DNA of 64,000 nt from an uncultured Bacteroidales bacterium (GTDB lineage: Bacteria > Bacteroidota > Bacteroidia > Bacteroidales > Muribaculaceae). The translations under genes were made by a program, and so were the position numbers. The notes under the pieces are model-generated. The model was not told the origin of the DNA. It saw only the letters and a program-made list of their open reading frames with translations, and ran no database searches. Shown here piece by piece: positions 21,708 through 41,608 of the stretch (its first letter is position 1; each line of letters opens with the position of its first letter). Location of the stretch: contig CACYAW010000001.1 in assembly GCA_902772455.1 (NCBI GenBank), forward strand, positions 95,001 to 159,000. The letters run 5' to 3'.

Positions 21708-22820
21708 ATGAATAATGATTTGATCACTGTAACTTCCCCTTTGTTGCCCAACCTCGACGAGTTCAACCAGATGCTCCGCGAGATTTGGGACAGCAAGTGG
21801 ATTACCAATAACGGCTCTTTCCACAAACGGCTGGAACAGGCACTGTGTGACTACCTCAAGGTGCCTTACATCAGCCTGTTCACCAATGGTACTTTGCCAC
21901 TCATTACGGCGCTGCAGGCGCTTAACATCAGTGGCGAGGTCATTACCACGCCTTACAGCTTTGTCGCCACCACCCATTCCATTTGGTGGAATGGCATCAA
22001 GCCGGTATTTGTAGATATCGACCCGGCAACGGGCGGCATCGATCCTGATCGCATCGAGGCGGCCATCACCCCGCGCACAACGGCGATCATGCCCGTTCAC
22101 GTCTATGGAAAGCCCTGCCGAACCGCTGAGATTCAAGCGATTGCCGACAAATATGGCTTGCGCGTCATCTATGACGCCGCCCATGCCTTTGGCATCGAGG
22201 TGGACGGCAAGAGCATCCTCAATGAGGGCGACATGTCCACCTTGAGTTTCCATGCCACCAAGGTCTATAACACCATCGAGGGCGGAGCGCTCGTCATGCA
22301 TGACGAGAAGATGAAGCAGCGCATCGACTTCCTTAAGAACTTTGGTTTCGCTGGCGAGACGGAGGTCGTGGCGCCAGGCATTAACGGAAAGATGGACGAG
22401 ATGCGTGCCGCCTATGGCCTGTTGAACCTGCAACAGGTGGATGCCTGCATCGAGGCTCGCCATCAGGTGGCTATCCGTTACCGCGCGGCGTTGCGTCCCG
22501 TCGAGGGCATCGACTTCTGGGACGACATGCCCGGTGTGCGCCACAACTATAGCTATTTTCCCATCTTTGTCGATGCCGACAAGTATGGTATGACGCGCGA
22601 TGAGCTCTATTTCAAGATGCGCGAGCAGGGCATCCTGTCGCGCCGCTACTTCTACCCGCTCATCAGCACCTTCTCCACCTACAAAGGCTTGCCCAGCGCC
22701 ACCCGCGAGAATCTGCCCAATGCCACCCGCATGGCCGACACCGTCATCTGCCTGCCCATGCATCACGAACTCACCGATGCCGACCTCACCCGCATCCTCG
22801 ATATCATCATTAACAAGTAA
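21708..22820 (+). CDS. vioA: dTDP-4-amino-4,6-dideoxyglucose (viosamine) transaminase, DegT/DnrJ/EryC1/StrS family
   Basis: VioA-type N-terminus ITVTSPLLP..IWDSKWITNNG, YDAAHAFG, SFHATK (PLP lysine), RRYFYP. Confidence 0.85.
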   Translation: MNNDLITVTSPLLPNLDEFNQMLREIWDSKWITNNGSFHKRLEQALCDYLKVPYISLFTNGTLPLITALQALNISGEVITTPYSFVATTHSIWWNGIKPVFVDIDPATGGIDPDRIEAAITPRTTAIMPVHVYGKPCRTAEIQAIADKYGLRVIYDAAHAFGIEVDGKSILNEGDMSTLSFHATKVYNTIEGGALVMHDEKMKQRIDFLKNFGFAGETEVVAPGINGKMDEMRAAYGLLNLQQVDACIEARHQVAIRYRAALRPVEGIDFWDDMPGVRHNYSYFPIFVDADKYGMTRDELYFKMREQGILSRRYFYPLISTFSTYKGLPSATRENLPNATRMADTVICLPMHHELTDADLTRILDIIINK

Positions 22821-22825
22821 CTCCG

Positions 22826-24043
22826 ATGGCTGAAGCGAAAAAGAAACTGATGCTCCTGGGCGGCTTGCGCTACCTGTTGCCCGTCATCGAGGCTGCGCAT
22901 CGTCATGGCATCCACGTCATAACGGTAGATTATCTGCCTGACAATATAGCTCACCGTTACAGCGATGAATACCACAATGTGAGCATCATCGACAAAGACG
23001 CCGTGCTTGCTTTGGCTCAGGAACTGCAGATTGACGGCATCATGTCGTTTGCCGTCGATCCCGGAGTCGTGGCAGCCGCCTATACGGCAGAGAAGATGGG
23101 CCTGCCGTTCCAGTGCAGCTATGAGGCCGCCTGCATCCTTCAGGACAAATCCAGGTTCCGTAAGTTCCTTGCCGATAACGGCTTCAACGTGCCCAATGCA
23201 CGCGGATACAGCGAGGGTGACGATACCCTGCAGGATATAGATTACTTTAACTGGCCAGTTATCGTCAAGCCCGTGGACAGCGCCGGCAGCAAAGGCGTCA
23301 CTCGCGTTGACGACCCCGCCGACCTCCCTGCTGCCATCGCCCATGCCATCGACTGCTCTCCCTCCCGGCACTACATCATCGAGGACTTCCTGGAAAAAGC
23401 AGGCTTTTCATCTGATACTGATAGTTTTTCGGTAGATGGTGAGTTGGTATTCTGTACGTTCAACAATCAATATTTTGATGATGATGCCGAGAATGAGTAT
23501 ACCCCTGCTGCCTATAGTTGGCCGTCATCCATGTCCCTGGATGTTCAGGACGAATTGAGGTCCGAATTGCAACGTTTGCTCACCCTGTTGGACATGAAGA
23601 CGGGATTGTACAACATTGAAACACGATTGTGCACTAATGGTAAGGCATACATTATGGAAGTCTCGCCTCGTGCAGGAGGCAACCGCCTCGCAGAGATGTT
23701 GAAATACGTCACAGGCGAGGACATTATTGAACGAGCGACTCTAGCTGCTGTTAGGGAGGAATTCCAACCCATTTCACAGGGCTCAGACGCATGTGGCACC
23801 CATATTGTTGAAATAATTCTTCACGCCAACCAGCCTGGTCTTTTTTCTCGATTGGAGATTTCACCTGAACTCAAATCTTTTTTGGTTGAGGAAGACCTAT
23901 GGGTTAAGCCTGGTGCAAAAGTGGAAACTTTTACTGGGGCCAATATGGCCATCGGGACACTAGCTTTCAAGGCTAATTCCCAAGATGATGTGGCTCGTAT
24001 CATCAATCTGGCCAAACGACATGTCAAGGTCATTGTCTCATGA
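22826..24043 (+). CDS. ATP-grasp ligase (carboxylate-amine / L-amino-acid-ligase-like)
   Basis: DKSRFR, VIVKPVDSAGSKGV, IIEDFL, YIMEVSPRAGG. Confidence 0.85.
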   Translation: MAEAKKKLMLLGGLRYLLPVIEAAHRHGIHVITVDYLPDNIAHRYSDEYHNVSIIDKDAVLALAQELQIDGIMSFAVDPGVVAAAYTAEKMGLPFQCSYEAACILQDKSRFRKFLADNGFNVPNARGYSEGDDTLQDIDYFNWPVIVKPVDSAGSKGVTRVDDPADLPAAIAHAIDCSPSRHYIIEDFLEKAGFSSDTDSFSVDGELVFCTFNNQYFDDDAENEYTPAAYSWPSSMSLDVQDELRSELQRLLTLLDMKTGLYNIETRLCTNGKAYIMEVSPRAGGNRLAEMLKYVTGEDIIERATLAAVREEFQPISQGSDACGTHIVEIILHANQPGLFSRLEISPELKSFLVEEDLWVKPGAKVETFTGANMAIGTLAFKANSQDDVARIINLAKRHVKVIVS

Positions 24044-24993
24044 TAAATCAGCGTAAATCTATCGGCGGATACTTTGAACTCGAACTGCCACAAGGTGTAG
24101 AGTACCATAGCAATGCCATAGCCTTGAATACGGGGCGCAATGCTTTGGAATATATCCTGCGGGTGCGTGGCTACAAACGGGTTTATCTGCCGTATTATTC
24201 CTGTGATGTACTGCTTGAACCCTTCAGTAAACTGCGCATCAACTATACGTTTTATCACATCAATTCAAATCTAGAAGTAGAATTTCAGGAATCGTTGAAT
24301 TCAGATGAGGCAATCCTCTATATCAACTATTTCGGTCTAAAACAAGACCATGTCGAGAGTTTGGCTAAACGATATGGAAAACAGTTGATTGTCGATAATA
24401 CCCAAGCATTCTATGCACCGCCAATAAGCGGTATAGACACTTTTTATAGTTGCCGCAAGTTCTTTGGTGTGCCCGATGGTGCTTATCTTTACTGTGACCA
24501 AGTACTAGATGTAGATTTGGAGCAAGACCATTCATGGGAACGGATGACACATCTGCTTAAACGGATTGATGTATCGGCAGAGGACGCATATGTCGATTTT
24601 CGTGAAACAGACGAGAGCCTGAAGAATAATCCCATTAGGCAAATGTCTCTCTTGACTCACCGCATCATGGCGTCGATTGACTATAGTGGGATAGCGGAAT
24701 GTCGCAGAAAGAACTATCTGCGACTAGACGAGGTTCTTAGTAACAAGAACGGTATTTCTTTATTACTTACTACGGATGCCGTACCCATGGTTTATCCTTT
24801 TTTCATCACAGACATTCAACTTAGGCAACGTCTCATCGAGAATAAAGTGTATGTTGCCACCTATTGGCCCAACGTGTTGGATTGGTGTGACAAGAACACT
24901 ACTGAACATCCTTTAACCCAGCAGTTGTTACCCATCCCCATCGACCAGCGTTATGGCGAGGGTGACATGAAAATGATTGTTGAATTGATATGA
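24040..24993 (+). CDS. Short DegT-like PLP-fold protein of unknown function
   Basis: IGGYFELE N-terminus, YINYFG, IVDNTQ, SCRKFFGVPDGA, PIDQRY. Confidence 0.6.
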   Translation: MINQRKSIGGYFELELPQGVEYHSNAIALNTGRNALEYILRVRGYKRVYLPYYSCDVLLEPFSKLRINYTFYHINSNLEVEFQESLNSDEAILYINYFGLKQDHVESLAKRYGKQLIVDNTQAFYAPPISGIDTFYSCRKFFGVPDGAYLYCDQVLDVDLEQDHSWERMTHLLKRIDVSAEDAYVDFRETDESLKNNPIRQMSLLTHRIMASIDYSGIAECRRKNYLRLDEVLSNKNGISLLLTTDAVPMVYPFFITDIQLRQRLIENKVYVATYWPNVLDWCDKNTTEHPLTQQLLPIPIDQRYGEGDMKMIVELI

Positions 24994-25619
24994 AAGATTT
25001 GATTATAGCTGGTGCAGGTGGATTTGGCCGCGAGGCATTAGGATTAGCAAAGGCTATAAATGAGGTCAATCCCCAATGGAATATTAGGGGGTTTATTAAT
25101 GATATTCCTAATGCCCTTGACGGCGTGAAATGCAGTCATGGCATTATAGGTACCATCAAGGACTGGCAACCTTCAGAGAACGAGGTGTTTGTTATGGGTG
25201 TTTCTTCTCCAGAAGGAAAGGAAAAGATAGCCAATATTCTTAAGGCTAAGGGTGCTCAGTTTGTTTGCTTGATACATCCACTAGCCCTTATCTCCGATTA
25301 TGTGACCATGGGAGAAGGCTGTATTGTTGGTGGCCGTTCTTCGATTGGTGACAATGCTATCCTGGGAGATTTTGTCAATCTGGCTGGTTCGATGGTGGGG
25401 CAAGATGCTGTTATTGGTGATTTCTCGACGGTTACGGGTTATGCCAACATCACCAATGCCCAGTTGGGAAAGCGCGTGTTTGTAGGTAGCCATGCCGTTA
25501 TCATGAATAAACGCAAGGTGGGCGATGATGCGTACGTTTGTGCTGGCAGCATCGTGTTCAATAATGTCAAACCAGGCATTAAGGTGTTTGGCAATCCAGC
25601 TAAGAAATTCGATTTATAA
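24990..25619 (+). CDS. Sugar N-acyltransferase, NeuD/PglD/VioB family (left-handed beta-helix)
   Basis: IIAGAGGFGRE, LIHP, hexapeptide repeats, VFGNPAK. Confidence 0.85.
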   Translation: MKDLIIAGAGGFGREALGLAKAINEVNPQWNIRGFINDIPNALDGVKCSHGIIGTIKDWQPSENEVFVMGVSSPEGKEKIANILKAKGAQFVCLIHPLALISDYVTMGEGCIVGGRSSIGDNAILGDFVNLAGSMVGQDAVIGDFSTVTGYANITNAQLGKRVFVGSHAVIMNKRKVGDDAYVCAGSIVFNNVKPGIKVFGNPAKKFDL

Positions 25620-26369
25620 ATGGAAGGATTTAACCCATTTTCTCTTGATGGTCGCAGGATTCTGGTGACCGGAGCATCGTCGGGAATTGGGCGCACTACG
25701 GCTATTGAGTGCTCCCGTATGGGTTCACGCATGATAATTACAGGCCGTGACACCGAAAGGTTGGACGAAGTCCTGCATGAGTTGCAGGGAGAGGGACATC
25801 AGTCTATTATTGCTGACTTGACGCAAGCCGACCAAGTTGAAAACCTGCTCTCACAGTTGCCCGTTGTTGACGGTGTCGTGTTGTGTGCTGGCCAGGGTAC
25901 GGTCGTGCCTTTCAAAATGGCAGATAGAAAGAAGATTGATCCCATTTTCGAGATCAACTATTTTGCTCCCGTTGAGTTATTGCGGCTGATATTGAAAAAG
26001 AGAAAACTAGCGGATGGCTCATCTGTAGTATTTGTCTCATCGATTGGCGGAGTTGATGCTATCACCATTGGTAATAGCATTTATGGCGCTTCCAAGGCTG
26101 CGTTAAATTCCGCTATGCGATTCTGCGCACTGGAACTGGCTTCCAAACAGATTCGTGTCAACAGTGTTTGCCCTGGCATGGTGAATACACGCCTCATACA
26201 GGGAGGGGCAGTCAGCGAGGAGCAGCATCAGGCCGATATGCAGAAGTATCCGCTCAAGCGATATGGTGAGCCCGAAGACATCGCTCACGGCATCGTTTAT
26301 TTGTTGTCCAATGCATCATCATGGGTTACCGGACATTCGCTGGTGATTGATGGTGGATACACAGTTTAA
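25620..26369 (+). CDS. SDR oxidoreductase, FabG-like (copy 1)
   Basis: TGASSGIG, YGASK, RVNSVCPG, IDGG. Confidence 0.9.
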   Translation: MEGFNPFSLDGRRILVTGASSGIGRTTAIECSRMGSRMIITGRDTERLDEVLHELQGEGHQSIIADLTQADQVENLLSQLPVVDGVVLCAGQGTVVPFKMADRKKIDPIFEINYFAPVELLRLILKKRKLADGSSVVFVSSIGGVDAITIGNSIYGASKAALNSAMRFCALELASKQIRVNSVCPGMVNTRLIQGGAVSEEQHQADMQKYPLKRYGEPEDIAHGIVYLLSNASSWVTGHSLVIDGGYTV

Positions 26370-26377: not shown

Positions 26378-27490
26378 ATGGCTTTTTTTGAGTTTAATCA
26401 TATTAAGGTGGCTGGCGTGGCATGTGCCGTGCCCAAGAATGAGGTCAAGACCGAATCCTATAAGCCCGTTTTCGGTGATGAGGAAGTAGATAAGTTCATG
26501 GCGATGACCGGCGTGAAGGCATCGCACAGAACCCTTGAACACCAGACATGCTCTGACCTGGGCTATCGTGCCGCCTGCGAGCTATTGGCTCATAAGGGCA
26601 TCAAACCTGAGGAAATCGGGGCCTTGCTCTTCTCTTCACACAGTCCCGACTATCGCCGTCCGTCAACAGCGTTTGTGCTGCAGCATCGATTGGGCGTGCC
26701 CGAGGAGGCCGTGTGCTATGACATCAGCCTTGGTTGTTCATCGCTAGTGGTAGGCATGCAGACGATGGCGTCTATTATGAGCACCAGCGACATGAAATAT
26801 GGTCTGCTGTTTGTGGGCGACACGGCTGGCAAGTCGGTAAATCCTCATGACCGCAGTTCGGCCATGCTCTTTGGCGAGGCAGGAGCAGTGATGTTGCTCG
26901 AAAAGACGCAAAACGAAGCCGACCAGATTAAGGCGCTGGTGCGCAGCGACGGTTCTGGTTTTAAGTATATGATTATTCCTGGTGGTGGTTACCGCAACCT
27001 GCATGCCAGCGAAGAGGTCGTAATGTGCGCCGATGGCAACGAGCGCACCTTGATGAATTCCTTCATCCAAGGCACGTCGGTGTTCACGTTCACCATCTTT
27101 GATGTGCCTCGATTGATTAAGGACTTCTGGAAGCAGACAGCGACTGGTCCTGACGACTATGACTGCTTTGCCTTTCACCAGGCCAACCTGTATATCCTCA
27201 AGCAGATTGCCAAAAAGACCAAGATACCCTTTGAGCGCCTGCCCATCACGCTCGACCGCTATGGCAACACGTCAGGTGCATCGGCCATTGTGTCGCTATG
27301 CGACGTCTATGGCGCTGGAAACGATAACAAGACCATCAAGGTGATGGCATGCGGCTTCGGCATCGGTATCTCGCTGGGTGCGACGTCATTCGAGATCAAT
27401 ACCGATGACATCCTGCCCATTATGGAGGATGACGAGATCTATACCGAAGGCCTCATCACCAATCCCAACCAACTCTACGAGAAAAAGTGA
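26378..27490 (+). CDS. Ketoacyl-ACP synthase III, FabH-like (copy 1)
   Basis: Catalytic triad DISLGC, FHQAN, YGNTS; GFGIG. Confidence 0.9.
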   Translation: MAFFEFNHIKVAGVACAVPKNEVKTESYKPVFGDEEVDKFMAMTGVKASHRTLEHQTCSDLGYRAACELLAHKGIKPEEIGALLFSSHSPDYRRPSTAFVLQHRLGVPEEAVCYDISLGCSSLVVGMQTMASIMSTSDMKYGLLFVGDTAGKSVNPHDRSSAMLFGEAGAVMLLEKTQNEADQIKALVRSDGSGFKYMIIPGGGYRNLHASEEVVMCADGNERTLMNSFIQGTSVFTFTIFDVPRLIKDFWKQTATGPDDYDCFAFHQANLYILKQIAKKTKIPFERLPITLDRYGNTSGASAIVSLCDVYGAGNDNKTIKVMACGFGIGISLGATSFEINTDDILPIMEDDEIYTEGLITNPNQLYEKK

Positions 27491-27554: not shown

Positions 27555-27590
27555 TGAAATAGACACTTGAAGGTATCGCATAGAATCCCA

Positions 27591-29120
27591 ATGATTTATA
27601 ACGTCCTGTCATATCTTGAGGATACAGCCCGCCGTTTTCCTGATAAAATGGCGCTGGCTGACGACAAGACTGCCCTCACCTTTGCCCAGTGGCTGTCGAT
27701 GGCGCAGGCTATCGGCACCCAAGTCGCCCGCCAGACTAGCGCCGTGCGCCGTCCCGTGCTGGTGTTTGTTGACCGTAAGGTGGAGTGTCTGGTTGGTTTT
27801 ATGGGCGTGGTCGAGAGCGGCAATTTCTATGTGCCCATCGACAATAAGATGCCCAGTGAGCGCATCCGCCTCATCGTTGACGTGCTCGATCCCGTTGCCG
27901 CCATCACAGTGACTGACAAGGATGCTCAGGTGTTGCAATCCATCGGTTTTCAGGGCGTAATTATAGATTACAATACCGTTATCGGTCAGGACGTCGATGA
28001 GGCGCTGTTGTCTGGCATTCGTGGGCAGATGATTGACACCGATCCGTTGTATGCCATCTTCACCAGCGGCTCGACGGGAGTGCCCAAAGGGGTTGTCGTC
28101 AGCCATCGTGGTGTGATTGACCTGGCCGAGTGGCTTGTGGGACGTTTTGGCTTTGACGAGACCGATGCGCTGGGCAACCAGACGCCGTTCTATTTCGACG
28201 GCTCGGTCAAGGATATCTACATCTGTCTCAAGACCGGTGCCACGTTGAACGTCATCGGCAAGAAATATTTCACCTTCCCCAAGTTGCTCATCCAGCTCTT
28301 GAACGAGCGTCAAATCACCACCATCCTGTGGGCGACGTCGGCCATCGTGCTGGTGGGCAACAGCAACATCCTTGACGATAATGTTCCGCAGCACCTGCGG
28401 CGCATTTTCTTTGCCGGCGAGGCCATGCCTGCCAAGCAGTTGAAGGTGTGGATGAGCAAATTGCCAGGGGTTCAGTTCATCAATCTGTACGGTCCCACCG
28501 AGATCACCGTCGATTGCACCTACTATGTGGTGGACCGCGATTTTAGTGACGACGAGTACATCCCCATTGGGCGTCCTTGCGAGAACATGCAGGTGCTCGT
28601 CTTCAACGACGAGGGCAAGCTGGTGGGCATCGACGAGCCGGGCGAGTTGTGCGTGCGTGGCACGGGAGTGGCCCTGGGCTATTATAATAATGTGGAAAAG
28701 ACTCGGGATGCTTTTGTGCAGAATCCGCTGCACAACCTTTATGAGGACAAGATTTACCGCACGGGTGACATCGTGAAGTATAACCGCTGCGGTGAACTGG
28801 AGTTTGTGTCCCGCAAGGACTTCCAGGTCAAGCACAACGGTAATCGCATCGAGTTAGGCGAGATTGAGGTGGCCGTCAACGCCCTTGACGGCGTGACGGG
28901 TGCCGCCTGCATACACGACAGCGAGGAGGACAAAATCGTGCTGTATTACACCACGGCCAGCGGCGATGAACTCGACATTATCAATCTGGTGAAGGACAAA
29001 TTGCCTAAGTACATGTTCCCTAACGTCATCAACCGCATTGATGCCATGCCCCACAACATGAACGGCAAGATCGACCGCATCGTCCTCAAGCACAACTACC
29101 AAGAACTAAAACAACAATAG
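27591..29120 (+). CDS. Stand-alone amino-acid adenylation enzyme (NRPS A-domain / DltA-like)
   Basis: Core motifs YAIFTSGSTGVPKG, FYFDGS, NLYGPTE, GELCVRG..VALGY, YRTGD, RIELGEIE, NGKIDR; no C or T domain; ATG at 27591 preferred. Confidence 0.92.
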   Translation: MIYNVLSYLEDTARRFPDKMALADDKTALTFAQWLSMAQAIGTQVARQTSAVRRPVLVFVDRKVECLVGFMGVVESGNFYVPIDNKMPSERIRLIVDVLDPVAAITVTDKDAQVLQSIGFQGVIIDYNTVIGQDVDEALLSGIRGQMIDTDPLYAIFTSGSTGVPKGVVVSHRGVIDLAEWLVGRFGFDETDALGNQTPFYFDGSVKDIYICLKTGATLNVIGKKYFTFPKLLIQLLNERQITTILWATSAIVLVGNSNILDDNVPQHLRRIFFAGEAMPAKQLKVWMSKLPGVQFINLYGPTEITVDCTYYVVDRDFSDDEYIPIGRPCENMQVLVFNDEGKLVGIDEPGELCVRGTGVALGYYNNVEKTRDAFVQNPLHNLYEDKIYRTGDIVKYNRCGELEFVSRKDFQVKHNGNRIELGEIEVAVNALDGVTGAACIHDSEEDKIVLYYTTASGDELDIINLVKDKLPKYMFPNVINRIDAMPHNMNGKIDRIVLKHNYQELKQQ

Positions 29121-29204: not shown

Positions 29205-30014
29205 ATGGAGCAGTTGACCACAATAGAACAGTATAACAGCATTGCCGAGCGCTACCGCCGCCTGGGATGCTTTAGTAATGACTATCTGCAAGCTCGTGCC
29301 GAAGGGCTGATTGCCCGTGGACTGCTGTCGGCTGAATGGACTAACAACAATGCCTACCTGCTGGAGAGTAAAGACGGTTTCTATCGCCTGTACTACTACC
29401 TCAATGACCTGGAGGCTGACGATAAGCCTCAATTCCCCGGTGATGTGGTAACCGAAATCCTGTATCGTGGCCCGGCGCGTTACCCCAAGGCCGAGGTGGT
29501 TTTCCTCGAGCGCATGGGCTTCAATCCCAACCTGGTGCGCGACCAGTATGCGGCCGTCTATCGGGATCTGGCCCCTGCAGGCGATAACAAGGAGGTCACA
29601 GTGCGGCCCGCACTCGACATGAGCGAGGTGCAGTGGGCATGCCAGCTGTTCAATGTGACGTTTGACCGCTATAGCGGCGATTTCATCCCCGAAGAGAGTT
29701 ATGGCGGTTTACTTGCCACCGACAGCATCCTGGTGGCGATGGACAACATCGGCAACAGGGTGGGGGCGCTGCATCAGACCGTGGAACGTAACGTCGCTTG
29801 GATTTCACATGTCGCCGTCGTGCCCGCGGCACGAGGTCACCATGTAGGGGCTGCGCTGGTGGACGCCTTCGTCGAGCGCAACCACACCAGTGACAAGAGC
29901 CGCTATATGCTGTGGGTGCAGCAGCAGAACACCGCCGCTGTGGCCATGTACAAGAAAAAAGGCTTCACCAACTTGGGCAAATCCACCCTCTCTCTCATCA
30001 GAACTACGAATTAA
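29205..30014 (+). CDS. GNAT-family acyltransferase
   Basis: C-terminal VAVVPAARGHHVG and NTAAVAMYKKKGF motifs. Confidence 0.8.
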   Translation: MEQLTTIEQYNSIAERYRRLGCFSNDYLQARAEGLIARGLLSAEWTNNNAYLLESKDGFYRLYYYLNDLEADDKPQFPGDVVTEILYRGPARYPKAEVVFLERMGFNPNLVRDQYAAVYRDLAPAGDNKEVTVRPALDMSEVQWACQLFNVTFDRYSGDFIPEESYGGLLATDSILVAMDNIGNRVGALHQTVERNVAWISHVAVVPAARGHHVGAALVDAFVERNHTSDKSRYMLWVQQQNTAAVAMYKKKGFTNLGKSTLSLIRTTN

Positions 30015-30049
30015 ACTAAATAAACGAAATTGTTGTTTTCCTTTTTATT

Positions 30050-30271: not shown

Positions 30272-30280
30272 ACAACGATT

Positions 30281-31435: not shown

Positions 31436-31440
31436 AATCT

Positions 31441-32595: not shown

Positions 32596-32598
32596 CAT

Positions 32599-33753: not shown

Positions 33754-33756
33754 AAT

Positions 33757-34914
33757 ATGATAGATTTTGAATTAAGACCCTATCCTGGCGAGGACAAGGA
33801 TGCTTTTATCAAAAGAAAAGCTTACTTTATCAGGATACTCAGGCGACGTAAGGATTTGAGTTCATGGTATATACCGAAAGCATTAGTCAACAATAATAAA
33901 CCTATAAGTGCTAGAGATAAAGAATTAATAGACGCTTTTTGGGGACGTTATTTGTCTGAGGATTTGAGGAACCATATAGTGGATTATGGATATTATGATA
34001 TTTATAATAACGTATTGACTCCAGGCGAACACCTCTGTTATTATATACCCGATTCTTTCTACCAAACTTTTATTGATGATTACTACACCAACCCTCAGCA
34101 TTCGTTTCCTTGTGATGACAAGAACCTGTACGACCTGTATTTTCATGATGTGAATAGACCGGAAACGATCTTTAGGAAAACCAGCGATTTTATCCTTGAT
34201 GGAAACTATCATGAAATTTCATTAAGAGAAGCCATTGACAGGTGTAAAGCTGAAAATGAGGTAATCTTGAAGAAAGGGAAGTTTTCTATGGCAGGAAAGG
34301 GTATTATGATTTGGAATGCTCAGCAGTCTGAGAAAGATTTGTTGGATTTTCTTAATGAGTCTCCTGATGTAGTTTGCCAGCGGATGATCAAGCAGCATGC
34401 CGAGTTGAGTCGTATTAATCCAACAAGTGTCAATACTGTTCGTATCATGACATTAGTATTCAAGGGGCAAGTCCATGTTTTGTCCCGTGTACTGAGAATG
34501 GGAGTCAATGGTTCTAGGGTTGATAATGCCAGTCAAGGTGGCATCGTTTGCGGTATAAAGCCCGATGGACAACTTAAGAATGAGGCATATAATACCTATG
34601 GCAAGAGGTTCCCGGTACATCCTCAAGGCCTAGAATTTGAGAGTGTAAAGATACCTAACTTTAACGAATGTACTGAGCTTGTCATGAACTTGGCGAAAAG
34701 ATTTTCCTCACTCTCTCGATTAATATCTTGGGACCTAGCAATTGACGAAGCTGGCCATCCATTGTTAATTGAGTTTAATCTGACCTTCGGCGAGTTGGAT
34801 TTCCATCAGTTTTGCAATGGCCCAATATTTGGAGAATTGACCGAAGATGTGCTGGCGGATGTCTTTGCCAATAGTTACACATTGAAATCCATCATTAAAT
34901 CGTTCAAGAACTGA
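33757..34914 (+). CDS. Sugar-transfer-associated ATP-grasp protein, tandem paralogue 4
   Basis: DDKNLY, KFSMAGKG, VDNASQGG, SWDLAI, IEFN. Confidence 0.85.
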   Translation: MIDFELRPYPGEDKDAFIKRKAYFIRILRRRKDLSSWYIPKALVNNNKPISARDKELIDAFWGRYLSEDLRNHIVDYGYYDIYNNVLTPGEHLCYYIPDSFYQTFIDDYYTNPQHSFPCDDKNLYDLYFHDVNRPETIFRKTSDFILDGNYHEISLREAIDRCKAENEVILKKGKFSMAGKGIMIWNAQQSEKDLLDFLNESPDVVCQRMIKQHAELSRINPTSVNTVRIMTLVFKGQVHVLSRVLRMGVNGSRVDNASQGGIVCGIKPDGQLKNEAYNTYGKRFPVHPQGLEFESVKIPNFNECTELVMNLAKRFSSLSRLISWDLAIDEAGHPLLIEFNLTFGELDFHQFCNGPIFGELTEDVLADVFANSYTLKSIIKSFKN

Positions 34915-36068
34915 TGATAGACTTTATAAAACCTTATCCTGGAGAGGACGAATTATCCTATTGGAAAAGAAGGGTATATTTCCTGAGGGAGGTGCAATAT
35001 CGCATTGATTATCAGAATAAAGAGATTCTGAAGAAATTATCGAATGCGATGGCATTAACTCCGCAAGAGAAAGCAGAGATTGATGCTTTTTGGGGCCGAT
35101 ATCTTCCTGGATGTTTAAAGGAGTCATTCCTTGATTACCGGTTTTATGAATTCTATAAGACAGTAAAAAAGGCTAGAGAACGTTTGTGTGACTATATACC
35201 CGATAACTTTTATGAGGCATTCATTGATGAATACTTCACAGATCCTCAGCACACAAGGCCATTTGATGACAAGAATCTGTATGATGTTTATTTCCATGAT
35301 GTGCCTCAGCCGAAGACGATCTTCCGCAAAATCCGCGACTCCTATCTGGATGCGAATTATAGGATCATCACCCAAGAATATGCCATTGAAGCGGCTCTTG
35401 GTGCTGAAGAGGTTATATTAAAAGTCGGAAAGTACTCATGCGCAGGAAAAGGTGTAAAGTTTTGGAATAAGTCTATAAACGACAAGCATGAAATCATTGA
35501 TTTCTGTGACGATTCAGCTAATGTTACTTGTCAAGAGGTAATCAAGCAGCATGCAGAATTGAGTAGGCTTAATCCTAGTAGTATCAATACTGTTAGAGTG
35601 TTGACACTGTTTTTCGATAATCAGGTTCATGTCCTGTCAAGTGTCCTGCGGATGGGTGTGAATGGCTCAAGAGTGGATAATGCTTCCAGTGGCGGAATCG
35701 TTTGCGGTATCCATGAGACTGGACAATTAAAAGGGGAGGCTTTTGATACAATGGGCAATAGGTATTTAAAGCATCCTCAAGGGACGAATTTTGAGAGTGT
35801 AACAATCCCTAATTTCTCTTACTTTATTGATTTGTCCATTTCATTAGCGGAGCGGTTCTCATCTATGTCAAGACTGATCTCGTGGGACTTTGCTGTTGGG
35901 GAATCTGGCGAGCCTATTTTGATAGAATTCAATATTTCTCATGGACAACTGGATTTCCATCAGTTGTGCAATGGCCCGATTTTTGGTGATTTGACCGAAG
36001 ACGTTTTGAAGGATGTTTTTACCAACAGTTATACGTTGAAATCAATCATTAAATCATTCAAAAACTGA
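34914..36068 (+). CDS. Sugar-transfer-associated ATP-grasp protein, tandem paralogue 5
   Basis: DDKNLY, KYSCAGKG, VDNASSGG, SWDFAV, IEFN; TGATG overlap with paralogue 4. Confidence 0.85.
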   Translation: MIDFIKPYPGEDELSYWKRRVYFLREVQYRIDYQNKEILKKLSNAMALTPQEKAEIDAFWGRYLPGCLKESFLDYRFYEFYKTVKKARERLCDYIPDNFYEAFIDEYFTDPQHTRPFDDKNLYDVYFHDVPQPKTIFRKIRDSYLDANYRIITQEYAIEAALGAEEVILKVGKYSCAGKGVKFWNKSINDKHEIIDFCDDSANVTCQEVIKQHAELSRLNPSSINTVRVLTLFFDNQVHVLSSVLRMGVNGSRVDNASSGGIVCGIHETGQLKGEAFDTMGNRYLKHPQGTNFESVTIPNFSYFIDLSISLAERFSSMSRLISWDFAVGESGEPILIEFNISHGQLDFHQLCNGPIFGDLTEDVLKDVFTNSYTLKSIIKSFKN

Positions 36069-37222
36069 TGATAGACTTTGATATAAAACCCTATCCTGGC
36101 GAGGATGAGATATCTGTGTTGAAACGAAAGGTTTACTTTATTAGGGAAGTAAAACCGCGCATCGACTATCAGAAAAAATCGATTCAAGAAAAATCGTTGA
36201 ATTTGGTTCCTTTGACTTCGGAGGAAAAACAGGATATAGATTCATTTTGGGATAAATATCTGCCAGGCGATCTGAAAGAAAAATTCTTGGATTACAGGTA
36301 TTATGAGTTTTATAAGAATGTCTTGAAGGATGGTGAACGCTTGTGCAATTATATGCCCGATTTGTTTTATCAGGCGTTCATAGATGAGTATTTCACCAAT
36401 CCGCAGCACACAAGGCCAATTGATGACAAGAACCTCTATGACTTGTATTTCCATGATGTGCCTCGACCTAAGACTATATTCCGCAAAATCCTTAACTCCT
36501 ATCTGGATGAAGATTATAGGCCGATTTCAATGGATCGTGCCATCGAAATGGCATGCGAAACAGATGAAGTCATACTAAAGGTAGCAAAATTCTCTGCAGG
36601 CGGGGCCGGTGTGAAGTTTTGGAAAAATGGTGTAAATGAAAAACAGGAATTAATTGACTTCCTGAATTCCTCGACCAACATCGTCTGCCAGGAGGTCCTC
36701 AAGCAGCATGACGAACTCAATCGGCTCAATTCCAGTAGTGTGAATACCGTAAGGGTGATGACACTGTTATTTGATGATCAAGTCCATGTGTTGTCAAGTG
36801 TGTTGAGGATGGGCATTAATGGCTCAAGAGTGGATAATGCCAGCAGTGGAGGCATCGTGTGCGGAATCATGCCTGACGGTAGATTGAAAAATGTTGCTTT
36901 CGACATGCTGGGCAATAAGTTTTTGAAGCATCCTCAAGGAACGGCTTTTGAGAGTGTGAGAATCCCTGATTTTTCAAAGTGTCTCGAATACTCAACCTCA
37001 CTGGCGGAGAGACTATCATCGACCTCTAGATTGATGTCATGGGATTTAGCAATTGGCGAATCTGGTCATCCATTTTTAATAGAATTTAATAATTCGAGAG
37101 GGCAAATGGACTTTCATCAGTTGTGCAATGGACCATTTTTTGGAAAAATGACTGATAAGGTCTTGTCTGAAGTTTTCAGCAAGAGTTTTACGTTAAATTC
37201 CATCATCAAATCATTACAATAA
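36068..37222 (+). CDS. Sugar-transfer-associated ATP-grasp protein, tandem paralogue 6
   Basis: DDKNLY, KFSAGGAG, VDNASSGG, SWDLAI, IEFN; TGATG overlap with paralogue 5. Confidence 0.85.
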   Translation: MIDFDIKPYPGEDEISVLKRKVYFIREVKPRIDYQKKSIQEKSLNLVPLTSEEKQDIDSFWDKYLPGDLKEKFLDYRYYEFYKNVLKDGERLCNYMPDLFYQAFIDEYFTNPQHTRPIDDKNLYDLYFHDVPRPKTIFRKILNSYLDEDYRPISMDRAIEMACETDEVILKVAKFSAGGAGVKFWKNGVNEKQELIDFLNSSTNIVCQEVLKQHDELNRLNSSSVNTVRVMTLLFDDQVHVLSSVLRMGINGSRVDNASSGGIVCGIMPDGRLKNVAFDMLGNKFLKHPQGTAFESVRIPDFSKCLEYSTSLAERLSSTSRLMSWDLAIGESGHPFLIEFNNSRGQMDFHQLCNGPFFGKMTDKVLSEVFSKSFTLNSIIKSLQ

Positions 37223-37225
37223 ATC

Positions 37226-38377
37226 ATGAAGGATTTTGAATTGAAACCCTTTCCTGGTGAGAGCAGCGTTTCGTTTGACAAACGGAAGGCATACTATCAC
37301 AGGGTATTAGCGCATCGTTTGGCCTATGGCCGGGATTGCCTGGACAACAAGCTGAAGAATTCTACCCCCATCAGTGTAAGTGAACGTGAGGAAATCGATG
37401 CCTTTTGGGCACCCTATCTCACGCCTGAGCAGCGTGCCGAGTTTATCGATTACAGGTACTATGACGTGTATAAAAAGGTGCTGCGAGAGGGAGAAAGACT
37501 TTGTGAGTATATGCCTGAGGATTTTTATGCCCTATTTATCGATGAGTATTTCGGCAATCCGCAACACTCTTTTCCAACCGATGACAAGAACCTGTATGAC
37601 CTGTATTATCATGACGTCAAGAGGCCCAAGACAATCTTCAGGAAAGTGAAAGGCGTATTGCTTGATGAGAAATATGATGAGATTGCGCTCGATGATGTGC
37701 TTGCCATGTCTAGAGAACAGGGCGAGGTGATTGTTAAACCTTCTCGATTCACTCGAAGTGGCCGTGGCCTACTGTTTTGGAATTCAGTCAGGAATGACGA
37801 GAAAGAACTCAGGGATTATCTGCAGAGTAGTGGAGATGTTGTGTGCCAGGAAGTGGTAAAGCAGCATCCCGAACTGAGCCGACTCAATGCCTCGAGCCTG
37901 AATACTATCCGCATCATGACATTGATGCTCCATGGTAAGGTGCATGTGCTGTCAAGCTGTATCAGAATGGGCATTGAAGGCTCAAAAGTTGATAATTTCA
38001 CCAATGGCGGCATCGGGAGCGGCATCAAGTCAAACGGACAGCTGAAGAATGAGGCTTTTGATTATCAGGCCAATAGATATGAGAAGCATCCATCAGGCAC
38101 GATATTTGAGAGCGTGATGATACCAAACTTTGATGAGTGTATCGAGATGGTGAAATACCTCGCTAAACGAATCAGCATCATGTCAAGACTGGTTTCTTGG
38201 GATTTGGCAATTGACGAGAGTGGTCACCCCTTGATTATAGAGATGAACTTTGCTGGTGGATTGGACATTCATCAGCTCTGCAACGGACCGATTTACAGGG
38301 AACTGACGCGCGAGGTGCTAGATGACGTGTTCAAGAATGCCTATACATTAAATGCCATCCTCAAATCCATGCAATAG
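37226..38377 (+). CDS. Sugar-transfer-associated ATP-grasp protein, tandem paralogue 7
   Basis: DDKNLY, KPSRFTRSGRG, VDNFTNGG, SWDLAI, IEMN. Confidence 0.85.
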   Translation: MKDFELKPFPGESSVSFDKRKAYYHRVLAHRLAYGRDCLDNKLKNSTPISVSEREEIDAFWAPYLTPEQRAEFIDYRYYDVYKKVLREGERLCEYMPEDFYALFIDEYFGNPQHSFPTDDKNLYDLYYHDVKRPKTIFRKVKGVLLDEKYDEIALDDVLAMSREQGEVIVKPSRFTRSGRGLLFWNSVRNDEKELRDYLQSSGDVVCQEVVKQHPELSRLNASSLNTIRIMTLMLHGKVHVLSSCIRMGIEGSKVDNFTNGGIGSGIKSNGQLKNEAFDYQANRYEKHPSGTIFESVMIPNFDECIEMVKYLAKRISIMSRLVSWDLAIDESGHPLIIEMNFAGGLDIHQLCNGPIYRELTREVLDDVFKNAYTLNAILKSMQ

Positions 38378-38378
38378 G

Positions 38379-39422
38379 ATGCGGACTATCAGCAGCGATT
38401 CTCTAAAGCGAGCTCAGATGTTGTATGACTATAAGTTGTACAGCATTAAACAAATCAGAACTTTTTCAAAATATGCTTGGAAAACGTCAGGAGAATTGTC
38501 TGCAAAATACGGCGGCAGCAGGTTGTGCTACTGGGTTGACATGATTTGGAGCAACCTCATGTACGGAGCCATGCATTGCCGAGATTATGTGGAATTTGAG
38601 TTTTTCAAGAAAAACGGCAGGGAAAAGAATACGTTCTTCACGCTGCGCCGATATTTTAATCTGGTCAAGCATCTTGACAAGGAAACCTTTTTCAGCTTGA
38701 TAGACAAGGCGTCCATGTATGAGATTTATGCCAAATATATCCATCGGGATTGGATACTGGCCGATGCTGGCACTCCCGAGAGCCAGATTCGGGAATTTGT
38801 GGATAAGCACGGAAAAGTGATTGTCAAGCCAGTGTCCTCAGACAAAGGCAAAGGCATTTATGCCCTTAATGCCAATGATAACGCTGCCGTTGCCAAGCTG
38901 ATGGAGCACAAACAGCAGAACGCGTATCTGCTAGAAGAACTGTGTGTGAATTGTGAAGAATTGAACACAATTAATGCGACTTCTCTTAATACGATGCGTC
39001 TGTTTACTCTTGTGAATGCTCAGGGCGAAGTTCAGATTATGTGTGCCTTCTTGCGCTGTGGTCGAGGTGGGGCGGTCGTTGATAACTGGTGTGCAGGTGG
39101 CGTGGGTTATCCTGTGGATGTTGAAACTGGCATTATTGCTTATCCCGGTGTGGATGCTGCTGGCAATAAGTATGTGATTCATCCAGGAACCGACAAGATT
39201 ATGCCTGGTTTTGAAATCCCGCGTTTTAAAGAGATCTGTGCATTGGCTAAGGAAATCATCAGTGACAACAAGAAAATCGTTTATGCTGGATTAGACTTTG
39301 CCATCCTTCCTGATAGGGTGGAATTTATTGAAATCAATTTCCCTGCTGGATATGAATTGATACAAACGTGGGACATGGTGGGTAAAAACCACTGGTTTGA
39401 GCATATAGTAAATAAAAACTAA
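38379..39422 (+). CDS. Sugar-transfer-associated ATP-grasp protein, divergent member (8th)
   Basis: DYVEFEFF, LIDK, IVKPVSSDKGKG, SLNTMR, VDNWCAGG, HPGT, GLDFAI, IEIN; ATG 38379 follows the previous stop. Confidence 0.85.
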   Translation: MRTISSDSLKRAQMLYDYKLYSIKQIRTFSKYAWKTSGELSAKYGGSRLCYWVDMIWSNLMYGAMHCRDYVEFEFFKKNGREKNTFFTLRRYFNLVKHLDKETFFSLIDKASMYEIYAKYIHRDWILADAGTPESQIREFVDKHGKVIVKPVSSDKGKGIYALNANDNAAVAKLMEHKQQNAYLLEELCVNCEELNTINATSLNTMRLFTLVNAQGEVQIMCAFLRCGRGGAVVDNWCAGGVGYPVDVETGIIAYPGVDAAGNKYVIHPGTDKIMPGFEIPRFKEICALAKEIISDNKKIVYAGLDFAILPDRVEFIEINFPAGYELIQTWDMVGKNHWFEHIVNKN

Positions 39423-39430
39423 AGAGATTG

Positions 39431-40195
39431 ATGGAGGCTGGATTTCTTGATCTTCAAGGTAAAAAAATAGTTGTTGCCGGGGCTTGTGGAGGCATGGGCA
39501 AGGCTTTGTCAGCCATGTTGGCTCAGGGTGGGGCACAGGTTATCGCACTGGACCTTAACGAGGAAGCACTGGTGCAGCTGTGCCAGCAACTGAATGGCGA
39601 GGGGCATTGCTACCGTGTGTGTGACTTTGGGCACATCGAGGGCATTGAACCAGTCATTGACGATATCATCAAGCAATGCGGGCCGGTGGACGGCTTTGTG
39701 CATTGTGCGGGCACTGGTGAGGTACGCCCCTTGAAGATGTCGAAGTATCCTTATATGGTGGATGTGATGAATGTGAACTTTTTCTCGTTTGTTGAAATCG
39801 TGCGTTGCCTAACTAAGCGCAAAGCCTTCAACCCTGGGATGAGCATTGTGGGCGTGTCGTCGATAGGCGCGTTCTATGGTGCGCCGACCAAAGTGGCCTA
39901 CACATCGTCTAAGGCGGCGATGAATGCCGCCGTGAAGTGCATGGCAGTGGAGCTGGGCGGGAAAGGCATCCGTGTGAATGCTGTTGCTCCTGGTGCGACC
40001 AACACCAGCATGAGGCGCCAATATGAAAGCTATGCCCAGGATACCGATAGCTACAAGATCAATGCCATACGTCAATTCTTGGGCGTGTGTGAGCCTGAGG
40101 ACATCGCCAATTCGATAGCGTTCCTGCTGAGTGACAAGGCGAGGATGATTACGGGCACCTGCCTGACCGTGGATGGCGGCAAAATGTCCACGTGA
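39431..40195 (+). CDS. SDR oxidoreductase, FabG-like (copy 2)
   Basis: AGACGGMG, YTSSK, RVNAVAPG, VDGG. Confidence 0.9.
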   Translation: MEAGFLDLQGKKIVVAGACGGMGKALSAMLAQGGAQVIALDLNEEALVQLCQQLNGEGHCYRVCDFGHIEGIEPVIDDIIKQCGPVDGFVHCAGTGEVRPLKMSKYPYMVDVMNVNFFSFVEIVRCLTKRKAFNPGMSIVGVSSIGAFYGAPTKVAYTSSKAAMNAAVKCMAVELGGKGIRVNAVAPGATNTSMRRQYESYAQDTDSYKINAIRQFLGVCEPEDIANSIAFLLSDKARMITGTCLTVDGGKMST

Positions 40196-40196
40196 T

Positions 40197-40247: not shown

Positions 40248-40311
40248 AGAGATTTAAGACGGTTTTAGGCCAAACTTTAGTAATAAGGGACAAGAAACTA
40301 GATACTAATAT

Positions 40312-41349
40312 ATGATTATCAATGAATTAAATAGTATTGCGATAAAGGGTGTCGCATGTGCGGTATCGACCAACTGGGTGTCGATTGAATCACTCAAGAA
40401 CGGTGAGAATGACGCCACGCTCGACAAGTTCGTGAAGACGACGAGCGTGCAGGGGCACTATGAGTGCGGGCCGCGTCAGACGGCTGCCGACCTGGCTCAA
40501 GTGGCCGCCCAGCGCATTATTGATGCCAAGGGTATAGACAAAGGTGAAATCGGTGTGCTGGTGTTTGCGACTCAGTACCCGGACTACCGCGTACCATCGA
40601 CGGCCTGTGTGCTGCAAGACAGGCTGGGCTTGTCGAAGAACTGCATCGCCTTTGATGTGAACTTGGGTTGCTCTGGCTATGTGTATGGCTTGAACATCGT
40701 CGCCTCGCTGATGCAGACGGGTAATGCCCGTTACGGTCTGTTGCTGGCAGGCGACACGCCATCGAAGGGCGTTCGCAGCGACAACTCGCGCAACCTGTTT
40801 GGCGATGCCAGCGCTGCCACGTTGCTGGTCAAGGAGGAAGGCGCCTCGCCCATGACCATTGCCTCAAGGACCGATGGTTCGGGCTACAAGGCGATCCTTC
40901 GCCCCTATGGCTACAGCAAGCACCCCGAGCGTCCCGACACCCAGGGTGTGTTTGACGAGATTGACGTGTTCAACTTCGCCATCAACGAGGCCCCTGCGCT
41001 CATCAACGAGCTGCTGGAAGCGAAGAACTTGACGCCCGACAACTTTGACTGCATGGCATTGCACCAGGCTAACATGATGATCATGAAGCAGATCGTGCGC
41101 CGCACCCACTTTGACAAAGACAAAGTGATCTACTCGATAGACCGCTATGCCAACACGAGCGCAGCTTCCATCCCCCTGTGCTTCGTCAAGAAGTATGGCG
41201 AGGTGGACGATAGCCAGCGGTTGAAGGCCCTGGTGTGCGGCTATGGCGTGGGCCTGTCGTGGGCTGCCGGCATCATTAGCCTGGATGCGCGTGACGTGCT
41301 GCCCATCATTGAGACGGACGAGTACTTTGACGATGGACTGTTTGAATAA
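40312..41349 (+). CDS. Ketoacyl-ACP synthase III, FabH-like (copy 2)
   Basis: DVNLGC, LHQAN, YANTS, GYGVGLSW. Confidence 0.9.
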   Translation: MIINELNSIAIKGVACAVSTNWVSIESLKNGENDATLDKFVKTTSVQGHYECGPRQTAADLAQVAAQRIIDAKGIDKGEIGVLVFATQYPDYRVPSTACVLQDRLGLSKNCIAFDVNLGCSGYVYGLNIVASLMQTGNARYGLLLAGDTPSKGVRSDNSRNLFGDASAATLLVKEEGASPMTIASRTDGSGYKAILRPYGYSKHPERPDTQGVFDEIDVFNFAINEAPALINELLEAKNLTPDNFDCMALHQANMMIMKQIVRRTHFDKDKVIYSIDRYANTSAASIPLCFVKKYGEVDDSQRLKALVCGYGVGLSWAAGIISLDARDVLPIIETDEYFDDGLFE

Positions 41350-41389
41350 ATAGAAGTATTTAATAATATAATTATCAGAGATTTAGATT

Positions 41390-41608
41390 ATGACTAACGA
41401 AGAAAAGTTGCACATGATTGAAGATGTGCTTGAACTGGACGAGAACACGTTGACTCCCGAGATGGTACTGGCTGATATCGAGGAATATGACTCGATGTCC
41501 AAACTGTCACTCATCGTGATGATTGACGACGAGTGCCACAAGAAATTGACCGGCGAGCAGCTGCGCGAATTCGTGACTGTGCAGGACGTGCTCGATTTCA
41601 TGGAGTAA
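41390..41608 (+). CDS. Acyl carrier protein (copy 2)
   Basis: 72 aa, acidic, EEYDSMSKL serine motif, TVQDV. Confidence 0.88.
   Translation: MTNEEKLHMIEDVLELDENTLTPEMVLADIEEYDSMSKLSLIVMIDDECHKKLTGEQLREFVTVQDVLDFME

Follow-up and report, generated by a model that had tools for sequence, protein, structure and literature searches.

The stretch of Bacteroidales DNA analysed here, 64,000 nucleotides long and called the window throughout, holds 21 tightly packed + strand genes between 21708 and 43110 in its open reading frame (ORF) listing, among them an array of ligases of the ATPgrasp_ST family (PF14397). We propose, with a confidence that falls a little short of even, that this block supplies the substituent in a Wzx-dependent capsule or exopolysaccharide (EPS) locus of a rumen Prevotellaceae bacterium, forming the half of the locus in which stepwise ligases would build a peptide side chain on a sugar. 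The gene content, the intact catalytic motifs, the fold, the modular variation of the array between loci and the peptide enzymes that co-occur with it were observed directly. Domains of the window proteins were assigned by Pfam and NCBIfam scans, with equivalog cut-offs as stated; loci labelled L0xx are related or extended contexts and G000 is the source genome.

The ligase array of the window

Seven paralogous ligases of about 384 residues follow one another as G1 (30281-31435), G2 (31441-32595), G3 (32599-33753), G4 (33757-34914), G5 (34914-36068), G6 (36068-37222) and G7 (37226-38377), and the array closes with G8, a short terminal ligase of 356 residues (38352-39422). The gaps between genes through the array range from -26 to +9 bp. 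PF14397 matches score 121.8-140.8 bits for G1-G7 (G2 122.5, G3 126.4, G4 135.9, G5 125.5, G6 121.8 and G7 140.8) and 136.3 bits for G8, at a gathering threshold of 31.4.

An earlier sequence-only reading of this DNA had named an assembly artefact as one outcome that would undo it. Among the seven paralogues identity is 46-68% at the protein level and 57-71% at the DNA level, a divergence which makes collapse or duplication by the assembler impossible. In a bovine gut study, contigs assembled separately for each of two runs hold 30000-39500 in one piece with zero differences, and a 97% relative from a different study bridges G1/G2/G3. Since the per-run contigs span the array intact, it is not an artefact, and that explanation was rejected. 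Recent duplication was likewise rejected, on the divergence of the paralogues and on the tree described below.

K171, D256-N257, D326 and E339-x-N341 are invariant in the alignment of all of G1-G7, and K171, D256, N257, D326 and E339 are invariant across 50 homologues. The G8-type proteins retain the equivalents K159, D244-N245 and E327-x-N329. The lysine, the metal-ligand motif and the fold together place the ligases in the ATP-grasp superfamily. In the predicted structure of a long ligase (pLDDT, the predicted local distance difference test, 90) the first ~130 residues are all-helical, and the aligned core leaves out about 150 of the 384. The closest folds to the model are ArgX/LysX, RimK and glutathione synthetase (PDB 4iwx, 5k2m, 3vpb and 1gsa), at 12-14% identity. 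This likeness is structural: a PDB sequence search with the G1-G7 profile gave nothing meaningful (best E 0.62), G1 had no match among the NCBIfam models, and at the sequence level G8 reached RimK/GshB only weakly, with 24.6 bits against a cut-off of 272. G8, which is 24-29% identical to G1-G7, also shows weak sequence matches to GSH-S_ATP, YheCD and MptN.

Across ligase types the protein varies least at residues 101-140 of the N-terminal domain, from which we infer that this helical domain binds something common to all steps, a shared handle. Nine columns are strictly type-specific, that is, conserved within types and different between them, and seven of the nine (258, 264, 278, 290, 340, 347 and 349) lie beside the DN, GGI and ExN motifs. 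In other ATP-grasp ligases, such as Ddl, the region near these motifs selects the incoming nucleophile.

The types themselves were defined from a maximum-likelihood tree of 104 ligases (quick search, with Shimodaira-Hasegawa-like approximate likelihood ratio test, SH-aLRT, support only). The long cassette ligases form one supported clade that splits into about 9-10 supported types, each common to several loci, with a mean identity of 69% within a type and 53% between types. Most members of two loci retrieved afterwards fitted a single type, with 76-91% identity to it and no more than 64% to the runner-up. Four proteins (L048_1, L043_1, L042_7 and L044_2) are close to no defined type and probably represent further ones. 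In the window, G1-G4 and G7 each stand for a type of their own. The G2 clade contains L012_2, L017_2 and L009_2; the G3 clade L009_1, L016_1, L014_3 and L042_3, with L047_1 and L048_2 78-86% identical to type G3; the G4 clade L039_2, L041_4, L014_2 and L042_2; and the G7 clade L012_3, L017_3, L042_4 and L016_3. G5 and G6 (type G5/6), which are 68% identical, are the sole within-type pair in the window, G5 having L041_1 as its nearest relative and G6 branching as sister to those two; each of the other five has closer kin in other loci than among its neighbours.

Type G7 is usually the last long member, and a member of the G7/G7b superclade holds that place in 8 of 12 arrays. Ten proteins of the G8 type make up a separate clade, and their genes invariably stand after the array and before FabG. 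There is partial collinearity between loci: A-G4-G3-x-G7b-6b is common to L014 and L042, and L039 corresponds to the tail of L041.

Discrete and shuffled types, present in varying number, argue against dosage, recent duplication or a fixed hetero-oligomer, and argue for distinct specificities of the long ligase types. The contrary view is that the paralogues are redundant or structural, the parts of a hetero-oligomeric ligase, a means of raising dosage, or spares, so that one reaction would yield one simple substituent. ATP-grasp enzymes are commonly oligomers, and the conserved N- and C-terminal segments and the tight coupling of the genes would suit such a complex. Against it, the types are old as well as discrete on the identities given above, their composition and number shift between loci (1-7) in a manner unfit for a fixed complex or for dosage, and the catalytic residues are kept in every copy. 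We regard it as very unlikely.

Modular variation and peptide-type genes in related loci

More than 600 same-length homologues of G1 were found, nearly all from gut and rumen assemblies; the genome records that contain such homologues belong to Prevotellaceae, Muribaculaceae, Alistipes, other ruminant Bacteroidales metagenome-assembled genomes and Prevotella corporis DSM 18810, whose homologue (L029) is 43% identical and is accompanied by a short ligase and a CapA-like gene. The loci sampled were metagenome contigs picked by similarity to G1, and contexts were retrieved for eleven proteins. A common frame recurs in them, namely an adenylation (A) domain, a GNAT acyltransferase, the carrier protein CP1, n long ligases, the short ligase, FabG, in some cases FabH and an acyl carrier protein (ACP), and Wzx. 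Within this frame n is seven in the window and in L042, six in L014, four in L009, three in L012/L017, L016, L043 and L047, two in L044 and L023, and one in L021. Copy number therefore varies, as the sequence-only reading had proposed to look for, with arrays of 1-7 long ligases in rumen and gut Bacteroidales contigs. That reading knew of no described glycan locus with nine ATP-grasp genes, and our literature searches (ATP-grasp with O-antigen, amide-linked, Prevotella and capsule) found no description of such ligase arrays.

Three loci, L039, L041 and L048, carry 3, 5 and 4 long ligases behind another starter block, with no A domain, carrier or FabH. This alternative block comprises two L-amino-acid-ligase (LAL)-type ATP-grasps, a 317-residue protein also present in the window, an AlaDh/PNT-type enzyme and a protein of about 331 residues. 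L039 has the PdxA/HAD flank found in the window and a 96%-identical G1 orthologue, from which it follows that a close relative carries an alternative cassette at this chromosomal site. In the same three loci (L039:7682-9908 for the first) the AlaDh/PNT-N-domain protein is about 405 residues long and the protein of ~331-336 residues has a faint GNAT match. An opine-type N-(carboxyalkyl) amino acid is a possible product of the former; such amino acids occur on the 4-amino sugar Qui4N in some O-antigens.

Other genes keep company with the array. The DegT aminotransferase heads the cassette in L009, L021, L023, L039 and L048, and the pair formed by the ATP-grasp gene AG0 and the 317-residue protein is kept in L012, L021, L023, L039, L041, L043 and L048. 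GNAT is in every case flanked by the A domain and the carrier, the second carrier (ACP2) is conserved in L009, L014 and L043, and a Wzx orthologue of 477-478 residues follows the cassette in L009, L012, L016, L039, L043, L044, L047 and L048.

The slot between CP1 and the array is occupied in related loci by genes of a peptide-processing character. It holds a MurF-family ligase in L016 and L047 (TIGR01143, 331.7 bits, cut-off 288.6) and, in L047, a protein with a Peptidase_S11 (D-Ala-D-Ala carboxypeptidase) segment (47.4 bits); elsewhere it holds one or two CapA/PGA_cap-GDSL fusions and a serine-acetyltransferase-like hexapeptide protein. Hydrolases of the metallo-beta-lactamase (MBL) fold follow some arrays, and a distant relative of the ligases stands directly behind a Na+:alanine symporter in the source genome and four others. 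Judged from their families, these neighbours are genes that act on amino acids or peptide termini.

In the source genome the symporter-linked protein (L046:8696-11247, G000 contig C33) is a PF14397 ligase of 367 residues, 44% identical to G1 and outside any glycan locus. The pairing is also found in L004, L022, L025 and L027, and a short ligase resembling G8 is often close by. A strong long-ligase match within a 772-residue frame, which may be a fusion, was seen in another genus of the family (G340:C6:13868-14926). The PGA_cap part of the slot fusions matches the NCBIfam model MslH weakly, at 19 bits. MslH epimerises the C-terminal residue of a peptide (PMC10406935); that paper confirms the activity of MslH and not its relation to the fusions, so that a role of CapA/PGA_cap as a peptide C-terminal epimerase is offered as a lead only.

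The main alternative to a peptide is parallel decoration, in which each ligase would amidate a different carboxyl (of a uronic acid, a pyruvate ketal or an acidic acyl group), or would offer alternative amines to one site, giving single-residue amides or a mixture and no linear peptide. A uridine diphosphate (UDP)-glucose dehydrogenase gene upstream and a pyruvyl transferase gene downstream, the latter kept with the cassette in relatives, would furnish such carboxyls, and the varying order of ligase types between loci fits independent steps. The sole assayed capsule precedent is also of this kind, a single-step ATP-grasp amidation of glucuronate in Campylobacter jejuni HS:2. However, 7-9 ligases would demand as many carboxylates per repeat unit, and the ligase block is co-inherited with the aminotransferase, the starter modules and Wzx rather than with particular glycosyltransferases. 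Furthermore, the substrates of the MurF-like and DD-peptidase-like enzymes encoded in the slot are peptide termini, and the G7/G7b type is preferentially last. Hence we think parallel decoration unlikely, while giving it more weight than the other alternatives.

Starter modules, glycan context and the proposed pathway

The gene order described below is exactly that given by the sequence-only reading, as the ORF list and the domain assignments show, and the hidden Markov model scan which it had suggested gave PF14397, adenylation, PP-binding and ACP_syn_III matches. The block opens with a sugar 4-aminotransferase of the DegT/DnrJ/EryC1 family (21708-22820, 370 residues; PF01041, 327.7 bits). 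It is followed by AG0, an L-amino-acid-ligase-like ATP-grasp of 405 residues (22826-24043; ATP-grasp_4/3, ATPgrasp_N and a weak LAL_C2 match), and by the 317-residue protein (24040-24993). The latter has neither a Pfam nor an NCBIfam match and is probably a short DegT-like protein of the pyridoxal phosphate (PLP) fold; its protein-atlas neighbours are short DegT-like PLP clusters (score 0.99), which we treat as a lead only. A left-handed beta-helix (hexapeptide) N-acyltransferase comes next (24990-25619; PglD_N and Hexapep). The earlier reading called it VioB-type; membership of the NeuD/PglB/VioB hexapeptide family stands, whereas the name VioB is not established. The TIGR03570 score is 134.8 bits, below the cut-off of 160.8, and there are weaker LpxD matches.

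The first of two ketoreductase-ketosynthase cassettes consists of a FabG-type ketoreductase of the short-chain dehydrogenase/reductase family (25620-26369; adh_short_C2, 167.5 bits, YxxxK motif present) and a FabH-like ketosynthase III (26378-27490). The second, behind the ligase array, consists of another FabG (39428-40195; adh_short_C2, 167.4 bits) and another FabH (40312-41349). Both ketosynthases match ACP_syn_III and ACP_syn_III_C and have intact triads, C120, H267 (HQAN267) and N297 (GNTS296) in the first copy and C120, H251 (HQAN251) and N281 (ANTS) in the second. Their scores for subfamily NF006829, 186 and 201 bits, are below its cut-off of 249.

Between the first cassette and the array lie a stand-alone amino-acid adenylation domain of DltA-like size (27567-29120), a GNAT acyltransferase (29205-30014) and CP1 (30050-30271, 73 residues; PP-binding, 21.1 bits), which has a DltC-like DSF serine motif. 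The A domain scores 342.7 bits for TIGR01733 (cut-off 317.4) and carries the A3, A4, A5, A7 and A10 motifs as TSGSTGVPKG, FDGS, YGPTE, YRTGD and NGKIDR. A special likeness to LgrA (366 bits) was rejected: the score is merely two ordinary A-domain matches summed (163 + 200), and so no substrate was inferred from it. On what we take to be the GrsA numbering its specificity code is D-G-K-L-F-A-L-V-D-K, in which lysine at the position equivalent to 239 would hint at an acidic substrate; we do not rely on this. The GNAT families cover residues 160-260 of the acyltransferase only, leaving an extra ~150 residues at the N-terminus, and its MshD and RimI matches are weak. CP1 retains 92-95% identity in eight loci, where its GILDSFD motif is invariant. 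This conservation between loci that have differing arrays suggests that its cargo is probably constant. The second carrier, ACP2 (41390-41608, 72 residues; PP-binding, 22.3 bits), has a DSM serine motif.

These modules raise the possibility that the chain grows tethered to a carrier, in a thiotemplate-like manner, on CP1 or ACP2, and that the VioB-type or GNAT enzyme then moves the acyl-peptide to the sugar amine. The A domain, GNAT and CP1 immediately precede the array, CP1 is highly conserved, G8 co-occurs with this trio in 9 of 9 cassette architectures that carry G8, and the top fold matches ArgX and LysX work on a carrier protein. Butirosin offers a precedent in the building of its side chain by BtrI/BtrJ/BtrK (PMC11405602). 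However, the same ligase types, including the 96% orthologue of G1, occur in the three loci with no A domain, carrier or FabH, which shows that the array does not depend on a carrier, and no thioesterase or condensation domain was found in any of the 21 genes. A complex prediction for G8 with CP1 returned a score of 0.00, which gives no verdict and is evidence in neither direction. We judge carrier-tethered growth rather improbable, and the idea in the sequence-only reading of a nonribosomal peptide synthetase (NRPS)-like logic centred on the A domain and carrier is weakened by the carrier-free arrays.

The block ends with a Wzx-type flippase (41677-43110; Polysacc_synt_3, 321.9 bits). As that reading had noted, the first 20 kb of the operon contain no glycosyltransferase: the Pfam scan found none within the block, the first begins at 43269, and GT2, GT1 and Gly_transf_sug genes lie downstream of Wzx. 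With Wzx and glycosyltransferases in the same operon and a Bac_transf match of 204.9 bits at L045:5389-6003, this is a Wzx-dependent glycan locus. A free small acyl-peptide, that is, a secondary metabolite lodged in a capsule locus and unattached to the glycan, would also account for an A domain, carriers, FabH/FabG and ligases, all typical of small-molecule clusters. Yet in every case a sugar aminotransferase and Wzx flank the block within a single tightly packed same-strand operon, glycosyltransferase genes following further down, and the block has no dedicated exporter, thioesterase or regulator. We give this explanation the least credence.

The identity of the sugar was considered separately. 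The sequence-only reading had named the aminotransferase VioA and the sugar viosamine, an assignment that our scans do not support. The enzyme falls below every equivalog cut-off and far below those of the DesI, WecE and VioA type (best DesI, 297 against 650 bits; WecE, 144 against 435), and no thymidine diphosphate (dTDP)-glucose 4,6-dehydratase was found in the 87%-complete source genome (TIGR01181, best 102 against 365 bits), the assembly being incomplete and absence therefore unproven. A PglF/CapD-type dehydratase is present (PF02719, 401 bits, contig C13), and the 3' end of the 60-kb glycan region has a small PglC-like phosphoglycosyl transferase and PglD-like acyltransferases. From these genes, a UDP-linked 2-acetamido-4-amino-2,4,6-trideoxyhexose of the bacillosamine type is more likely than dTDP-viosamine.

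We infer the substrates, the direction of growth and the attachment to the sugar as follows. The DegT enzyme would aminate a nucleotide-activated 4-keto-6-deoxy sugar, probably UDP-linked and of the bacillosamine type. The sugar amine would then be N-acylated by a 3-hydroxyacyl starter made by FabH, FabG and a carrier and moved by the VioB/PglD-type transferase; in addition, or instead, the A domain may load CP1 with an amino acid as the starter, which GNAT would move or cap. Soluble G1-G7 would each add one amino acid, or a similar amine, to the free carboxylate of the growing chain via an acyl phosphate, the N-terminal domain holding the common handle and the type-specific residues near the catalytic motifs picking the incoming residue. 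G8 and the second FabG/FabH/ACP cassette may finish or cap the chain, and the co-inherited Wzx would flip the decorated repeat unit. The set of ligase types of a strain would thus fix the length and sequence of its side chain.

The fold neighbours ArgX/LysX, RimK and GshB together with the co-occurrence of MurF point to a Mur-like extension of a free carboxylate. By this analogy we favour stepwise C-terminal addition on an N-acylated 4-amino sugar, as in the Mur pathway, over NRPS-like thiotemplate logic. The stepwise assembly of an acyl-oligopeptide, as first suggested, is therefore kept in part. The comparative data, with 1-7 copies, shuffled types and MurF-, DD-peptidase-, CapA- and L-amino-acid-ligase-like genes in the slot, favour a variable amino-acid or peptide substituent; the carrier-free loci disfavour the A-domain and carrier logic that accompanied the suggestion.

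Several observations weigh against the peptide side chain. The MurF, S11 and CapA genes sit in related loci, and there is no Mur-fold gene in the window. Strictly type-specific columns number only nine, and the order of types is not universal (G3 stands before G2 in L009 and after it in the window), so that collinearity is weak. Two FabH/FabG cassettes are present, but there are two carriers for three carrier-using systems. Our literature searches found no assayed PF14397 member. Long-type matches are also rare: of 400 species-representative genomes in the family, 3 had any at E <= 1e-90, one or two each; at most 4 candidates were scored per genome, so that the survey speaks to rarity and not to copy number. 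Given this rarity, the sample of arrays is one drawn from metagenome contigs.

A stronger form of the proposal is that the locus represents a second, independently evolved stem-peptide system. It would place a sequence-defined oligopeptide of up to ~8 residues, some possibly in the D-form, on a capsule sugar by means of about 10 mix-and-match ATP-grasp types, with length and sequence readable from the gene array, and it would diversify as glycosyltransferase sets do in serotype switching. We consider this possible, although we lean against it. Were the peptide reading right, the antigenic variety of capsules in rumen and gut Bacteroidales would lie in a peptide side chain and not in sugars alone, programmed by interchangeable single-step ligases, and phage-receptor and host-immune variation would gain a further dimension among gut bacteria. 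A function could then be given to PF14397, a family so far uncharacterised whose metagenome relatives number in the hundreds, peptide synthesis with neither ribosome nor thiotemplate would gain a new case, and the ligases would serve as a natural set of orthogonal amide-forming tools that share one handle-binding domain. The ligases are small and soluble, and the loci form a natural deletion series of 1 to 7 modules.

The surroundings of the block show further features. With AG0, the window has the nine ATP-grasp genes that had been counted, and a tenth lies further down the same glycan region. This is an ATPgrasp_ST ligase of 366 residues in a second, smaller cassette about 9 kb past the end of the window (L045:8597-16310, equal to G000:C1:167597-175310). 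That cassette comprises an AMP-binding enzyme, FabH, ATPgrasp_ST, an MBL-fold hydrolase, DegT, a PglD-like acyltransferase and FabH, and its FabH-ligase-MBL-DegT core recurs in four genomes of the same genus (L005-L008). The 60-kb same-strand glycan run contains two flippase-like genes, the Polysacc_synt_3 gene at 41677-43110 and a weak MatE-type gene at 52159-53712 (517 residues), and ends with the PglC-like transferase at L045:5389-6003; it may be two tandem loci or one very large one. Within it, 48892-52143 holds the pyruvyl transferase, a DmpG/HMGL-like aldolase (NF006049, 255 bits) and a 418-residue protein of no family. This trio is kept downstream of the cassette in L009, L012, L016, L047 and L048 and forms one mobile unit with the ligase block.

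An antisense ORF of 405 residues overlapping the DegT gene (21549-22766, - strand) is a gene-calling artefact. The public record from which L039 comes annotates the counterpart of this ORF (422 residues, no Pfam match) in place of the aminotransferase. Just upstream of the locus, on the - strand (16780-19907), are genes for a myo-inositol-1-phosphate synthase, a nucleotidyl transferase and a HAD hydrolase, a set reminiscent of the Bacteroidetes inositol-lipid genes (compare PMC9246714). In RNA runs, 5-9% of the sampled words were present.

Comparison with known systems

Judged on its sequence, the locus is a member of the PF14397/ATP-grasp group and is neither an NRPS nor a Dlt system, and a viosamine pathway is not shown. 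An NRPS assembly line would call for the condensation and thioesterase domains that are missing from the 21 genes of 21708-43110. With DltA/DltC the locus shares a stand-alone A domain of DltA size and a 73-residue carrier with a DS-motif serine. In contrast to Dlt, the A domain scores 290.7 bits for TIGR01734 (DltA) against 559.85, and neither an MBOAT protein (DltB) nor DltD is found among the genes scanned in the window; its pocket, which presumably begins D-G-K on the GrsA numbering, is unlike the DltA pattern.

In butirosin biosynthesis the ATP-grasp ligase BtrJ acts on BtrI-bound intermediates and BtrH is the transferase. There, as here, an ATP-grasp ligase, a small carrier and an acyltransferase come together, and in butirosin synthesis an amino sugar or aminocyclitol receives from them an amino-acyl chain on its amine. 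BtrI, BtrJ and BtrK build the aminohydroxybutyrate side chain, which ends on the aminoglycoside amine (PMC11405602). Unlike our arrays, which also occur with no carrier gene, the butirosin system uses one ligase twice and keeps the chain carrier-bound throughout.

The C. jejuni HS:2 capsule provides a likeness of setting, an ATP-dependent amide ligase in a capsule locus. That ligase probably belongs to a different ATP-grasp family (TupA-like). The amidoligase forms glucuronamide with ethanolamine or serinol, according to the work of the Raushel laboratory. In contrast to the present locus, HS:2 has one ligase and one amide per repeat, and no arrays, carriers or A domain.

RimK, LysX-ArgX and glutathione synthetase add a free amino acid to the carboxylate of a larger acceptor through an acyl phosphate, and the array ligases resemble them in modelled fold. 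They differ from RimK/LysX/GshB in their low identity (12-14%) and in their all-helical first ~130 residues. The PF14397 family was defined by comparative genomics, and the glycan-locus context seen here is as its name predicts; modular arrays, discrete types and starter and capping cassettes are absent from its description. Our literature searches found nothing naming ATPgrasp_ST, PF14397 or the full family name ("sugar-transfer associated ATP-grasp").

The closest parallel in logic is peptidoglycan synthesis by MurC/D/E/F and Ddl (and that of pseudomurein), where soluble paralogous ATP-dependent ligases extend a carboxylate on an activated sugar before flipping. Ddl is itself an ATP-grasp enzyme, and MurF-family and DD-carboxypeptidase-like genes lie inside related cassettes. 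The differences are that the ligases here are PF14397 ATP-grasp and not Mur-fold proteins, that they number 1-7 and stand in a variable Wzx capsule locus rather than in dcw, and that a 4-amino-6-deoxy sugar carrying an acyl starter probably provides the anchor through its amine, in place of a lactyl ether. Aravind and colleagues (PMC4431377) set out as a general rule that peptide ligases encoded by linked genes carry out consecutive ligations, and named the O-antigen among their examples. The concept thus has precedent, and for the modular array we found none; what is new here is the copy-number series from 1 to 7, the discrete and shuffled ligase types, and the Mur/S11 context in which they occur.

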